Position numbers and translations under genes: made by a program. A stretch of DNA of 4,737 bases from a virus (Duplodnaviria; Heunggongvirae; Uroviricota; Caudoviricetes). Where the stretch lies: IMG/VR virus record IMGVR_UViG_2695420382_000015; one strand, written 5' to 3'. Each line of letters opens with the position of its first letter. Positions within the stretch are counted from its first letter, which is position 1. Below are positions 1 to 4,661 of the stretch, in pieces. The notes beneath the pieces are model-generated. The model saw only the letters and a program-made list of their open reading frames with translations, ran no database searches and was not told where the DNA came from.

Positions 1-54
1 AAACACTATCAATAAGTTGGAGTCATTACCCCAATTTTTTACGTACGTAAACCA

Positions 55-135
55 CTAAATGATATTTGCGAGAATGCTACCGAGTATTGAAAACACCACT
101 ACAAATACATAAGCAAATCCCAACAAATAACCAAC
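55..135 (-). CDS. 3' end of a small hydrophobic ORF truncated by the N-run (C-terminal residues VGYLLGFAYVFVVVFSILGSILANII, stop TAG at 55-57)
   Basis: Minus-strand frame is open from 135 down to a TAG at 55-57 and encodes an almost purely hydrophobic stretch typical of a transmembrane helix. The 5' part is lost in the N-run, so start and length are unknown. Not in the ORF track because it is short and truncated. Confidence 0.2.
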   Translation of the reverse strand, partial: VGYLLGFAYVFVVVFSILGSILANII

Positions 136-173
136 NNNNNNNNNNNNNNNNNNNNNNNNNNNNNNNNNNNNNN
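136..173. other. Run of 38 N (masked or unresolved bases, assembly gap)
   Basis: Literal n characters in the sequence; nothing can be read here. Confidence 0.95.
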
Positions 174-449
174 CCAGTGTTATTTTTAGCCAGTTTAAAT
201 TGAACCTTCAAATTATAGAGCACTTATAAATAACAGCCGTTAATATAAATTGGCTAATAGATTTATTTTTATTCAGCCAAGAGCCATGAATAGGATTCGA
301 TAGAAAAAAGTTCAGATAAAAATAGAGATCTACTTCACAAATCAAACGAGAAACCAAAACTTACATCTTGAAATAATCACATTGATTAGATGAATATTTA
401 TCGCGCAGTGACATCATTTTTTAATAATAGTTCAAAAAAAGGGCTCACG
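174..449 (+). promoter_or_regulatory. A+T-rich upstream or leader region of the porin gene with a Shine-Dalgarno-like AAGGG at 439-443; promoter hexamers not confidently placed
   Basis: Strongly A+T-rich non-coding stretch immediately 5' of the porin start at 450. TTGAAA at 368-373 and TTGATT at 382-387 are -35-like but lack a convincing -10 partner. Confidence 0.3.
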
Positions 450-1532
450 ATGAAAAAATTAACAGTGGCAATTTCTGCTGTAGCTGCATCAGTACTGATG
501 GCGATGTCTGCTCAGGCAGCTGAAATTTATAATAAAGACAGTAACAAGCTGGATCTGTACGGGAAAGTTAATGCTAAGCACTACTTCTCCTCTAATGATG
601 CAGATGATGGTGATACTACTTATGCCCGTCTTGGCTTCAAAGGTGAAACCCAAATCAACGATCAACTGACTGGTTTCGGTCAGTGGGAATATGAATTCAA
701 AGGCAACCGCGCTGAATCTCAAGGTTCCTCCAAAGATAAAACCCGTCTTGCCTTCGCTGGCCTGAAATTCGGTGACTACGGCTCCATCGATTACGGCCGT
801 AACTACGGTGTAGCATACGACATCGGTGCGTGGACTGACGTCCTGCCAGAATTCGGTGGTGACACTTGGACTCAAACAGATGTGTTCATGACTGGTCGCA
901 CCACTGGTGTTGCAACTTATCGTAACAACGACTTCTTTGGTCTGGTTGATGGTCTGAACTTTGCTGCTCAGTATCAGGGTAAAAATGACCGCACTGACGT
1001 AACTGAAGCTAATGGTGATGGTTTCGGTTTCTCCACTACTTATGAGTATGAAGGATTCGGTGTAGGTGCAACCTATGCTAAATCTGACCGCACTAATAAT
1101 CAGGTTATCTACGGTAACAACAGCCTGAATGCATCTGGTCAAAATGCTGAAGTATGGGCAGCTGGTCTGAAATATGATGCGAACAACATCTATCTGGCTA
1201 CCACCTATTCTGAAACCCAGAACATGACTGTTTTTGGTAATAACCATATTGCCAACAAAGCACAAAACTTCGAAGTAGTTGCACAATATCAGTTCGACTT
1301 CGGTCTGCGTCCGTCCGTTGCTTACCTGCAATCTAAAGGAAAAGACTTGGGTGCGTGGGGTGATCAGGACCTGGTTGAATATATTGATGTAGGTGCAACC
1401 TATTACTTCAACAAAAATATGTCCACTTTTGTTGATTACAAAATCAACCTGATTGATAAGAGCGATTTCACGAAAGCATCTGGCGTTGCTACCGATGATA
1501 TCGTTGCTGTAGGTATGGTTTACCAGTTCTAA
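450..1532 (+). CDS. nmpC: Outer-membrane general porin of the OmpC/OmpF/PhoE family, phage-borne NmpC/Lc/OmpD-like (360 aa precursor)
   Basis: Start ATG at 450 preceded by AAGGG. Signal peptide [23 protein letters not shown] with an AQA cleavage motif, then mature [16 protein letters not shown] typical of enterobacterial porins. C-terminal region has GLRPSVAY and [14 protein letters not shown] and ends in YQF (terminal Phe, beta-barrel signature). The ORF track's 390 start adds 20 residues ahead of the signal peptide and is rejected. Identification is recalled similarity, not a search. Confidence 0.93.
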
Positions 1533-1547
1533 TTTGATTACTAAAAG

Positions 1548-1581
1548 ATATGTTGCGGGAGGCTTTGCCTCCCCAACATAT
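1548..1581 (-). terminator. Long near-perfect hairpin (15 bp stem with one bulged C, 3-nt loop); candidate tR'-type terminator for the minus-strand late leader
   Basis: Left arm atatgttgcgggaggc (1548-1563), loop ttt, right arm gcctccccaacatat (1567-1581). On the minus-strand RNA the stem is followed by CUUUUAGUAAU; on the + strand RNA it is followed by AAGUGG with no U tract. Functional assignment is inference. Confidence 0.35.
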
Positions 1582-1603
1582 AAGTGGCTCCCTCAAGCCA
1601 CTT
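1582..1603. repeat. Second inverted repeat (8 bp stem aagtggct/agccactt, 6-nt loop) directly abutting the first hairpin
   Basis: Read directly from the sequence; no U tract on either strand immediately after it. Confidence 0.3.
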
Positions 1604-1669
1604 CCTTTAGGAGCACAACCTTGCTTCTAACTATATAAACCTTCTGTTATATATTACCCTTTATTTTTG

Positions 1670-1693
1670 GGGGCGTTGCAACGCCCCATTTTT
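1670..1693 (+). terminator. Rho-independent terminator for the porin gene
   Basis: Perfect 18-nt GC-rich palindrome ggggcgttgcaacgcccc (1670-1687) followed by aTTTTT (1688-1693) and more T-rich sequence on the + strand. The minus-strand reading gives CAAAAAUAAA after the stem, so it is unidirectional. Confidence 0.7.
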
Positions 1694-1720
1694 AATAATT
1701 TTTAGTAAACAATTGGCATA

Positions 1721-2104
1721 TTAATTAGAGTTATTAACAACGATATCCATCTCTAACCGGATATCTAATGCCATTAACATCCCTTCAATTATGCCCTCAG
1801 CCTTCTGTAACCTTTTCCCGATATAACCATCAGAGCAGCAATGCTTACCTGCCAGTGACATGAATGTCATACCGACTACATAATAATCTACTAATAAATC
1901 GTGCAAATCGCTGTTGTTCTTTTTCAGACGGGCCATGCACCCGCAAATAATCATCGCGTCATCGTCACAACATTGCGGGCGAGATTTTACTTTTGAAGTA
2001 ATTAATCCCTTAAAACCGGCGGCAATGGACGACCAGGTCACATCTTCATGATTATTAGCCGCCCACGCTCCCCAACGCTCAAGAACCATCTGAATATCAC
2101 GCAT
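1721..2104 (-). CDS. quuD: Late-gene antitermination protein Q (phage 82 / DLP12 QuuD type), 127 aa
   Basis: Translation [62 protein letters not shown]... is recognised as the DLP12 QuuD / Q82-family protein. ATG at 2104-2102 with GGAG at 2115-2112 is preferred over the ORF track's TTG start at 2119. Stop TAA at 1721-1723. Confidence 0.9.
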
Positions 2105-3139: not shown

Positions 3140-3594
3140 TACGCCTCCTGCTTATCGCGCAGCTGCTGGTATTCACAGCTCTGCGGAATTGTCAGGTGGC
3201 AGCCGATATTCATCGCCCAGGCTTCGACTTTGCACAGGAAGATGTACATCTCGCCGGTTTCCAGCTCTGACGTATGGCGGAGGGATTGGACGGTGGTGAC
3301 CTCGCCGGACACGACATCTACACGGTCTTTGCTTTCGTAGCCGAGATAGGTGTGCTTCATCGCGTCTTTGACCCACTCAGGCGTAGCGAAGGTCTTGCCG
3401 CGGGCGATGAGATATTCGCTGATCTCCGTGTACCACATGTGGCTGAGCGCGTTCTGCGACAGGCTGCGCTTCTCGCGCCACGGCTTAACCTGCAGGCGTA
3501 AGCATTGCCCGGCATCCAGCAATGGCTGAATCTGCTGGCCGATGGCCGCGAAGTTACCGCGATGGAGTTTGATGCCGTCTACTGGCAGAGTCAT
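3139..3594 (-). CDS. ybcN: YbcN / NinB-family recombination-associated DNA-binding protein (151 aa)
   Basis: Translation MTLPVDGIKLHRGNFAAIGQQIQPLLDAGQCLRLQVKPWREKRSLSQNALSHMWYTEISEYL... The RSLSQNALSHMW core resembles the NinB (orf family) motif. ATG at 3594-3592 with GGGAGG 4-5 nt upstream. Confidence 0.88.
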   Translation of the reverse strand: MTLPVDGIKLHRGNFAAIGQQIQPLLDAGQCLRLQVKPWREKRSLSQNALSHMWYTEISEYLIARGKTFATPEWVKDAMKHTYLGYESKDRVDVVSGEVTTVQSLRHTSELETGEMYIFLCKVEAWAMNIGCHLTIPQSCEYQQLRDKQEA

Positions 3595-3686
3595 ACGGCC
3601 TCCCTAACGGAAACCGCAGAATGCAGAAAATCGCAGGTGCATTTCTGCATCTGTGACAAGGTGATGAGTTCAGATTGTGGTCGCAT
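3591..3686 (-). CDS. ylcH: Small ORF (31 aa) in the position of DLP12 ylcH, translationally coupled to ybcN
   Basis: Minus-strand ORF MRPQSELITLSQMQKCTCDFLHSAVSVREAV with AAGGGGA upstream of ATG (3686-3684) and a TGA stop overlapping the ybcN ATG (ATGA). Assignment to ylcH rests on position and size; I do not recall the reference sequence exactly. Confidence 0.5.
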   Translation of the reverse strand: MRPQSELITLSQMQKCTCDFLHSAVSVREAV

Positions 3687-3705
3687 TTAAGTCCCCTTAA
3701 ATGCG
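3682..3705 (-). promoter_or_regulatory. Hairpin (9 bp stem, 6-nt loop) enclosing the Shine-Dalgarno and start codon of the ylcH-like ORF
   Basis: Arms cgcatttaa (3682-3690) and ttaaatgcg (3697-3705) are perfect complements. On the minus-strand RNA the loop GGGGAC carries the SD and the ATG lies in the 3' arm. No U tract on either side, so it is not a classical terminator. Confidence 0.25.
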
Positions 3706-3792
3706 CAGAAGTCACCGGAGTTGTTCAGGCTCCGATGAGAGGATTATGGCGGATTGATTACGATAAATCAAAACTATCTTGAAGCCAAAACA

Positions 3793-3822
3793 GTGATCTT
3801 CGCTTTAAAAACCTTGTATACT
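3793..3822 (+). promoter_or_regulatory. Candidate sigma70-type promoter for the A+T-rich cassette (-10-like TATACT at 3817-3822; weak -35-like GTGATC at 3793-3798)
   Basis: The only reasonable -10 match upstream of the cassette's first gene on the + strand; the -35 element is poor. Purely sequence-pattern based. Confidence 0.2.
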
Positions 3823-3858
3823 TTCACCTAATCACAGCCAGAACTATGGATCTAACCA

Positions 3859-4236
3859 ATGACCAACAAAGAAAACAAAGATAAATATATTAACAAGTTC
3901 AAGAAAGAGCTTTCAAAATATATACAACCAACTGCTGGAGTGGACATTCAATTATTTAACTCTAAGGATGGTGGTGGTGTAATTAAAGCCACTTTGAATA
4001 GAAGTGGAAAAAGAAAATCATCTATTGCTGGTAATTTTACTAAATTAGGTGAGGCAATTACCTCGAGTGGGCAGAGGGTTTTTGGTGGTGATCTATCAAA
4101 TGTGAATTTTTACGGAACAAATACGATTTTTGATGGAGATACAATATTTTTAATTAAATCACCTGATTCAGAGGAGTGGTCATCACAAAAAGCTTCCAAA
4201 GACGTAGAGGGCATCGTATTTGGAGGGAAAAAATGA
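3859..4236 (+). CDS. Hypothetical protein, 125 aa, Lys/Gly-rich, predicted soluble; first gene of a two-gene A+T-rich cassette
   Basis: Uninterrupted ORF with an in-frame TAA two codons upstream of the ATG at 3859 and a weak GGA 8 nt upstream. Codon usage and composition differ strongly from the flanking phage genes. No family recognised. Stop TGA (4234-4236) overlaps the next gene's ATG. Confidence 0.55.
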   Translation: MTNKENKDKYINKFKKELSKYIQPTAGVDIQLFNSKDGGGVIKATLNRSGKRKSSIAGNFTKLGEAITSSGQRVFGGDLSNVNFYGTNTIFDGDTIFLIKSPDSEEWSSQKASKDVEGIVFGGKK

Positions 4237-4661
4237 TTAACATTACTACTAAGGATGGCACTCAAGTCAGTGGTGAAGTAAGAGATCTAGTAATTCTTCT
4301 TGAAACTGATGGAAAAACGGTGTCTGATTATTTGCAGCCAATCCCTCCCAAAAAAGATACACACTGGAGCATGATTTTCATTCCGGTAGCAATTTATATA
4401 CTACTTAATCTTGTATACATTATTGCTCACCCATTATTTCCTGAAAAATATCTAAAAACATCAACATCTATATTTCTATTCATTTCCTTCATATTAAGTG
4501 CAATAGTAGCATATTTTGTTTTCCATAAGCATAAATCTGCCACTCTATCCATATGCAGCTTAGTGTTCTTAGTGTTAATTGTAGGTGCTAACGTAGGGTT
4601 TATCAGTTACAGCGACCTAACACAAAAAGCGACGCAAAAATTAGATAGTTTGTCTAAATAA
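4233..4661 (+). CDS. Hypothetical small membrane protein, 142 aa: about 65-residue soluble N-terminal domain followed by three predicted transmembrane helices
   Basis: ATG at 4233-4235 with GGAGG at 4222-4226 (6-nt spacer), overlapping the upstream stop (ATGA). Hydrophobic segments WSMIFIPVAIYILLNLVYIIA, IFLFISFILSAIVAYFVF and ICSLVFLVLIVGANVGFISY are separated by short charged loops. The ORF track's 4176 start lacks an RBS and runs inside the upstream gene. Confidence 0.6.
   Translation: MINITTKDGTQVSGEVRDLVILLETDGKTVSDYLQPIPPKKDTHWSMIFIPVAIYILLNLVYIIAHPLFPEKYLKTSTSIFLFISFILSAIVAYFVFHKHKSATLSICSLVFLVLIVGANVGFISYSDLTQKATQKLDSLSK

Follow-up and report, generated by a model that had tools for sequence, protein, structure and literature searches.

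The stretch of DNA analyzed here (4,737 nt, IMG/VR record IMGVR_UViG_2695420382_000015, hereafter the window) carries, in intact form, an allele of the NmpC/Lc porin found in DLP12-like lambdoid prophages. Taken as a whole, the evidence is, with high probability, best explained by an intact NmpC/Lc cassette that would be transcribed from its own promoter and that lies between the antiterminator gene Q and the late promoter pR', outside the late transcript. Such a position, which would insulate the cassette from Q-dependent late transcription, was not found stated in the literature covered, the primary DLP12 and PA-2 papers apart. The NmpC/Lc prophage porin gene itself is already known, common, and ordinary, and nothing about it is new in kind. 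The features of the window are listed in Table 1.

Table 1. Features of the window, with positions counted from its first nucleotide
Feature	Position	Strand	Basis or remark
Outer terminal 30 nt of IS1; remainder beyond the left edge of the window	1-30		30/30 exact match
Surviving -35 (TTTACG, 51 to 46) and spacer of the pR' homologue	36-51	-	Match to the motif TTTACGTACGTAAAAA
Stretch of 38 N, masked or unknown, in the spacer between porin and holin	136-173		11-12 nt in relatives (K-12, ETEC1731)
AT-rich porin upstream region and 5' UTR (29% GC)	174-449	+	GC content, RBS, identity to relatives
Segment compared with K-12	174-890		DNA identity about 100%
Candidate sigma-E-type promoter (GAACTA-N16-TCACT), inside the porin 5' UTR	400-441	-	Primer position and motif
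NmpC/Lc-type general porin gene, intact	450-1532	+	ORF, Pfam, PDB, AlphaFold2, Fop
Signal peptide (residues 1-23)	450-518	+	Mature protein from 519
Segment compared with K-12	894-1553		DNA identity 70-93%
Porin 3' UTR, homologue of IpeX (DLP12/PA-2), 165 nt, four hairpins and an intrinsic terminator	1533-1697	+	Fold, conservation
Segment compared with K-12	1554-1733		DNA identity 97-100%
Antiterminator Q (quuD type), convergent with the porin	1721-2104 (or 2119)	-	PF06530, E 4e-53

The porin gene is intact and has the features of general porins

The porin ORF runs from an ATG start through 360 codons to a TAA stop, and re-reading of the sequence revealed neither a frameshift nor an internal stop. 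The encoded protein matches Pfam Porin_1 (PF00267, E 3e-153) end to end, with residues 29-360 aligned on profile positions 1-337 of 337, and its best PDB matches are OmpK37, OmpC, PhoE, and OmpF (6V78, 2J1N, 1PHO, and 2OMF as a group; E 1e-137 to 1e-116). Because the mature chains of these solved porins begin at what is residue 24 of the window protein, the signal peptide corresponds to residues 1-23, i.e. MKK, a hydrophobic core and AQA/AE, with cleavage predicted before AEIYNK. The protein ends in VYQF and thus has a terminal Phe. In an AlphaFold2 model computed with 59 homologues (pLDDT 75.7, pTM 0.73), it folds into 16 strands, and loop L3 (residues 117-153), which is modeled at low confidence, contains LPEFGGD, matching the PEFGGD constriction-loop motif of this loop. 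This set of features (full-length profile match, 16 strands with the L3 motif, signal peptide, and C-terminal Phe) is that of the general porin family, and the protein is predicted to be a 16-stranded general diffusion porin of the trimeric type, exported via a 23-residue signal peptide. Pfam, PDB, and gene context thus all agree with the original prediction, made from the nucleotide sequence alone, of a full-length, phage-borne general porin of the NmpC/Lc/OmpD group that carries a signal peptide and a C-terminal Phe.

The ORF finder also lists an in-frame ATG at position 390, which would yield a 380-aa reading. The start annotated in identical RefSeq copies is at 450, a ribosome-binding site (AAGGG) is found at 438-442, and the 20-residue extension ahead of the true signal peptide is likely to be an annotation artefact. 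As judged by their lengths, 385-aa database entries named NmpC/LC precursor probably match the 390 start, i.e. a 365-aa allele with the same 20-residue extension.

The porin is widespread in lambdoid prophages

The porin is identical to RefSeq protein WP_000737275.1, found in the pig ETEC strains ETEC1731 and CV839-06, which PGAP has named porin OmpC (ompC), and it heads a 90%-identity cluster of 2741 members. Among 5426 complete E. coli genomes, 2384 contain the porin and its 3' UTR with at least 80% coverage, and 283 records show at least 99% identity to the porin and its 3' flank. It is also present in deposited genomes of lambdoid phages (PhiR68_2, PhiR34_1, ev243, 4A7, and Lambda_4C10). 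In ETEC1731, K-12 DLP12, CV839-06, and PhiR68_2, the gene order is the same, P...ybcN-ninE-ybcO-rusA-ylcG-Q, then the porin on the opposite strand, and then essD-rrrD-rzpD. Lambdoid genes border the porin on either side (P, nin genes, rusA, and Q; holin, endolysin, spanin, and terminase), and, as in NmpC/Lc cassettes, it sits between Q and the S-R-Rz lysis genes on the opposite strand. This arrangement bears out the earlier statement that porin and Q are convergent and that the porin is opposite to the lysis genes.

The practical value of these findings lies mostly in annotation: what RefSeq lists as "porin OmpC" is the prophage porin NmpC/Lc, with a 3' UTR of the IpeX type. Where a copy is intact, it can take the place of OmpC/OmpF or add to them, altering antibiotic permeability and the availability of phage and colicin receptors, and is relevant to the interpretation of porin-loss resistance genotypes in E. 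coli. Effects on permeability and on phage receptors have reportedly been established for Lc/NmpC.

No tRNA genes were found in the window. Further along it, two overlapping ORFs on the + strand (3859-4236 and 4233-4661; 34% GC) lie opposite the nin genes, between P and ybcN, and match the function-unknown families phrog_18061 and phrog_16940. The product of the second looks membrane-embedded and has a weak, sub-threshold Pfam match to 7TMR-DISM_7TM; PADLOC gave no match for either ORF. K-12 has ybcL/ybcM at this position, and in CV839-06 the first ORF is interrupted by IS1. The two ORFs are possibly a cargo or exclusion module.

The porin cassette is self-contained and reverse-oriented

The porin gene is part of a self-contained, reverse-oriented cassette comprising an AT-rich upstream region, the ORF, a 3' UTR, and a terminator. 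The upstream region is 98-99.6% identical in K-12 (99.6%), ETEC1731, CV839-06, and phage PhiR68_2. A stock promoter scan found nothing relevant in window positions 1-1720 or in the intact relative, and a relaxed scan yielded weak candidates only, the best of which upstream of the porin, GAGAAA-N18-AATAAT with a TG extension (348-377), may serve as the porin promoter. In published work on the DLP12 lysis operon (PMC7918800), a reporter construct covers "-121 to +650", and its forward primer Pdlp12Fw (Table S1 of that paper), whose given position is -121, corresponds to the reverse complement of window 502-521. The position of this primer would place the +1 of the operon near window 400 on the - strand, and the sigma-E-like motif at this location would face the lysis genes, away from the porin ORF. 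Further upstream, the 38-N stretch possibly makes the porin-holin spacer ~27 nt longer than it is in relatives.

Downstream, 188 bp separate the stop codons of the porin and Q. This Q-porin spacer is fully accounted for by an IpeX-type 3' UTR and its terminator, whose stem (1670-1687, followed by a T-run) is the only intrinsic terminator in the spacer. The + strand of 1530-1700 folds with a minimum free energy of -62.9 kcal/mol (z = -8.1), compared with z = -3.9 for the mirror-image hairpins of the - strand. The UTR is 96-100% identical in K-12 (97% for K-12 nmpC), an E. coli draft contig, and PhiR68_2, and 88% identical in Escherichia albertii, where the substitutions sit in hairpin loops or preserve pairing. 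Among these are one compensatory change (C-G to U-A) and two changes from A-U to G-U, which are neutral for the + strand alone. An Rfam scan of the whole window matched no family, which implies that IpeX is without a model in Rfam. No IpeX-like UTR or adjacent Q was found beside chromosomal OmpD-type porins of Citrobacter, Enterobacter, Salmonella, and others. The IpeX sequence in the transcript of the phage PA-2 porin lowers OmpC/OmpF (PMC12197685, PMC8065619). The original prediction contained no mention of this UTR or its terminator.

In the E. albertii locus (examined locus 1406-2760), the porin is 89% identical, and the Q beside it is a 33-aa remnant. The presence of porin and UTR next to a Q remnant suggests that the cassette outlives the prophage.

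Expression of the porin

We propose that the porin is transcribed from its own promoter in the cell that carries the phage or prophage. The 3' UTR of its transcript would then act as IpeX and, in view of the role reported for this RNA, lower OmpC/OmpF, so that the porin set of the outer membrane would be swapped.

A doubtful but serious alternative is that the porin, although intact, is quiescent, i.e. silent under ordinary conditions (for example through silencing of its AT-rich upstream region) and a preserved, unused remnant that adds little to the outer membrane. The upstream region is indeed very AT-rich and lacks a consensus sigma-70 promoter, the surrounding prophage is decaying, with IS1 here and IS3 in rrrD of relatives, and nmpC of E. 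coli B is called a "quiescent porin gene" in the title of Prilipov 1998 (PMC3333887). Against this, the codon usage of the porin is that of a highly expressed gene, its Fop being 0.74, whereas the eight remaining ORFs of the window have values of 0.40-0.62. In addition, the ORF, its upstream region, and its 3' UTR are intact and near-identical across thousands of genomes while the neighboring genes decay, and the copies described as not expressed are disrupted by insertions, IS5 in K-12 and IS1 in BL21-Gold(DE3). Lysogens of phage PA-2 are also said to express Lc as a major protein.

The allele differs from K-12 NmpC mainly in surface loops

In the K-12 annotation, nmpC (b0553) is a pseudogene interrupted by IS5B 58 nt short of the 3' end, in line with the original prediction, which described this copy as disrupted by IS5. 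When K-12 NmpC was reconstructed and aligned with the window protein, residues 1-148 were identical and overall identity was ~90%, with 36 differences including two indels. The mapping of differences onto surface loops, which had been suggested as a check, placed 30 of the 36 in predicted extracellular loops L3-L8, mostly L4, L5, L6, and L8. Loops make up 123 of the 360 residues (Fisher p = 2e-10). At the DNA level, identity to K-12 drops over a single internal segment and recovers beyond it (Table 1). Judged by these alignments, the departures of the allele from K-12 NmpC are almost confined to surface loops L4-L8, which are encoded by a mosaic 3' half, and this mosaic suggests recombinational exchange of the surface-loop segment. 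Across 59 members of the porin family, L1, L2, L4, L5, L6, L7, L8, and the periplasmic turn T2 are the most variable parts, and L3 and the strands are conserved.

These patterns, together with the fold of the spacer, can be combined into a more elaborate reading, which we consider improbable. On the one hand, the Q-porin spacer would work on both strands. Its + strand would provide IpeX and the terminator, and its - strand hairpins would meet early transcription from pR that proceeds past Q, so that upon prophage induction the collision of convergent transcription would shut off porin and IpeX before lysis. Separately, the conserved 5' half and the UTRs would be arms for recombination, by which the 3' half coding for L4-L8 would be swapped between prophage porin alleles.

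The late promoter homologue lies between porin and holin

The Q protein is annotated as quuD in relatives, is identical to Q of K-12 DLP12, shares 78% aa identity with Q of 933W, and distantly matches the Q21 structures 6P18 and 6JNX. In ETEC1731, which has an intact spacer between porin and holin, this spacer matches ~80 nt of 933W, VT1-Sakai, phi24B, and many other Stx phages with 77-89% identity (E 2e-8 to 3e-17). The annotation of the Stx phages assigns promoter pR', qut, and terminator tR' to this region, with the label "putative" in the 933W and phi24B records. At this homologue, DLP12-type loci read TTTACG-N16-TATGCT-GTTAAGAGTGGTTAC...AAACCCGCCGTCGAGCGGGTTTTT, which aligns with TTTACG-N16-TATCAT-GATAAGAGTGGTTAC...AACCCGCCGATGCGCGGGTTTTT in 933W. 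The pR' motif occurs once per locus in ETEC1731, CV839-06, K-12, and PhiR68_2, always between porin and holin, and in 933W and phi24B it falls at the annotated pR'. As a promoter, TTTACG-N16-TATGCT scores 8/12, which is under the threshold of the scan. In the ETEC1731 interval, the - strand has a single terminator, the tR' homologue. SfIV shares the transcribed leader and terminator, and its upstream promoter differs, which fits a transcription start just upstream of GTTAAGAG.

The original prediction had placed the porin within reach of Q, with Q-dependent late transcription running antisense through it toward the lysis genes. This reading, in which pR' would lie directly downstream of Q and Q-modified polymerase would traverse the whole porin, now appears very improbable. 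It is true that Q and porin are convergent with the lysis genes beyond the porin on the strand of Q, that pR' directly follows Q in lambda and in Stx phages such as 933W, and that no - strand terminator was detected between Q and the porin. The expected promoter, by contrast, was not found. On the - strand, 1533-1720 contains neither a promoter-like site nor any sequence resembling an annotated pR'; this spacer is accounted for by the IpeX-type UTR and terminator, and Stx phages with a related Q match the Q coding region only and not this spacer. Instead, all related loci examined, a deposited phage genome among them, have a single pR'-qut-tR' homologue, which lies between porin and holin. The arrangement that would make the porin an antisense gene of the late transcript, i.e. 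pR' between Q and the gene, was thus not found. One sequence in the Q-porin spacer, TTGCAA-N19-TAATAT, was considered as a candidate pR' and dropped on account of its 19-nt spacing and lack of homology to annotated pR'. A weak, unrecognized Q-responsive promoter next to Q is formally conceivable.

Since the sole pR'-qut-tR' homologue lies between porin and holin, Q-dependent transcripts are expected to originate past the porin and to proceed away from it. It is thus very probable, on sequence grounds, that the porin/IpeX cassette is positioned between Q and pR' and hence outside the Q-dependent late transcript. In our proposal, Q-modified polymerase would start at pR' beyond the cassette and transcribe away from the porin. 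With no - strand terminator detected past Q, antisense RNA over the porin could arise only from early pR transcription reading through the Q stop, and would then be early rather than Q-dependent.

IS1 interrupts the late promoter homologue

The left end of the window coincides with an insertion. Window 1-30 matches the end of the annotated IS1A in CV839-06 (examined locus 6446-6475) at 30 of 30 positions, and homology to all related prophages begins at position 31. The late strand of the window reads TTTACGTACGTAAAAAATTGG/GGTAATGACTCC... across this IS1 junction (slash). On the - strand, the motif TTTACGTACGTAAAAA occurs once, compared with 0.05 matches expected by chance over both strands with up to 2 mismatches allowed. 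The -35 and spacer of the pR' homologue (51 to 36) are therefore cut off by IS1 from its -10, qut, and tR'. Among 5426 complete E. coli genomes, this junction was found in none. In the two closest relatives (examined loci 3771-5603 and 270-2103), an IS3-family element interrupts rrrD, the endolysin gene, and these prophages are lysis-defective while their porin is intact.

The insertion of IS1 in the pR' homologue here, together with IS3 in rrrD of relatives, makes the prophage look defective, and the element is probably a cryptic prophage in decay, with its porin cassette still intact. A broken late promoter homologue next to a preserved cassette is consistent with domestication of the porin during prophage decay. 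Of the original description of the porin as a phage's lysogenic conversion gene, the phage-borne part stands; because the prophage looks defective, the gene is probably better described as a domesticated gene of a cryptic prophage.

Comparison with known systems

That the porin might be a chromosomal ompC/ompD paralogue mislabeled as phage-borne, as its PGAP name and its 76-80% identity to chromosomal OmpD-type porins of Salmonella, Citrobacter, and Enterobacter could suggest, is already refuted by gene context: lambdoid genes on both flanks, occurrence in deposited phage genomes, an N terminus of 148 residues identical to DLP12 NmpC, and OmpD-type loci without IpeX UTR and Q.

The closest known system is NmpC (b0553) of the K-12 prophage DLP12 (qsr'), which occupies the same locus in the order ybcN-ninE-ybcO-rusA-ylcG-quuD/porin/essD. 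The two differ in what has been broken: K-12 NmpC is an IS5B-split pseudogene, whereas the window copy is intact and IS1 is inserted in the pR' homologue. The window shares with NmpC/Lc cassettes the location, the identity to DLP12 NmpC, and the IpeX-type 3' UTR with its Rho-independent terminator. Lc (protein 2) of lambdoid phage PA-2 is likewise an intact phage porin; it is expressed from the prophage and has an ipeX-like 3' UTR (PMC12197685, PMC8065619). The likeness to PA-2 Lc is drawn from this literature and from the names of ~90% identical database relatives ("outer membrane porin protein LC"). In contrast to PA-2, which is a viable phage, the window element looks defective.

OmpD of Salmonella enterica and the OmpD/OmpC-like porins of Citrobacter and Enterobacter belong to the same subfamily, with the same length and architecture. 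They are chromosomal and have no detected IpeX-like UTR or adjacent Q, whereas the window porin is in a prophage. OmpC, OmpF, PhoE, and OmpK37 (2J1N, 2OMF, 1PHO, and 6V78) align with the window porin over the full length and share with it the 16 strands, the PEFGGD motif in L3, and the C-terminal Phe, but in the window porin L4 is shorter and the sequences of loops L5-L8 differ.

In lambdoid phages, the interval between Q and the lysis genes is a general site for cargo. In Lambda_ev087 (examined locus 3550-4074), a reverse-oriented gene for the lipocalin Blc is located downstream of Q, and SfIV (274-1344) and Stx2a_WGPS2 (416-1447) have reverse genes of 356 and 343 aa, respectively, just upstream of the late leader/terminator. 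Neither of the latter two genes had a Pfam match, which indicates that they are not porins. Reverse-oriented cargo near the late control region is represented by bor in lambda, blc in Lambda_ev087, and the 356-aa gene in SfIV, in addition to the porin. The bor gene of lambda lies inside the late transcript, downstream of Rz, whereas the porin cassette would lie upstream of pR' and outside it.
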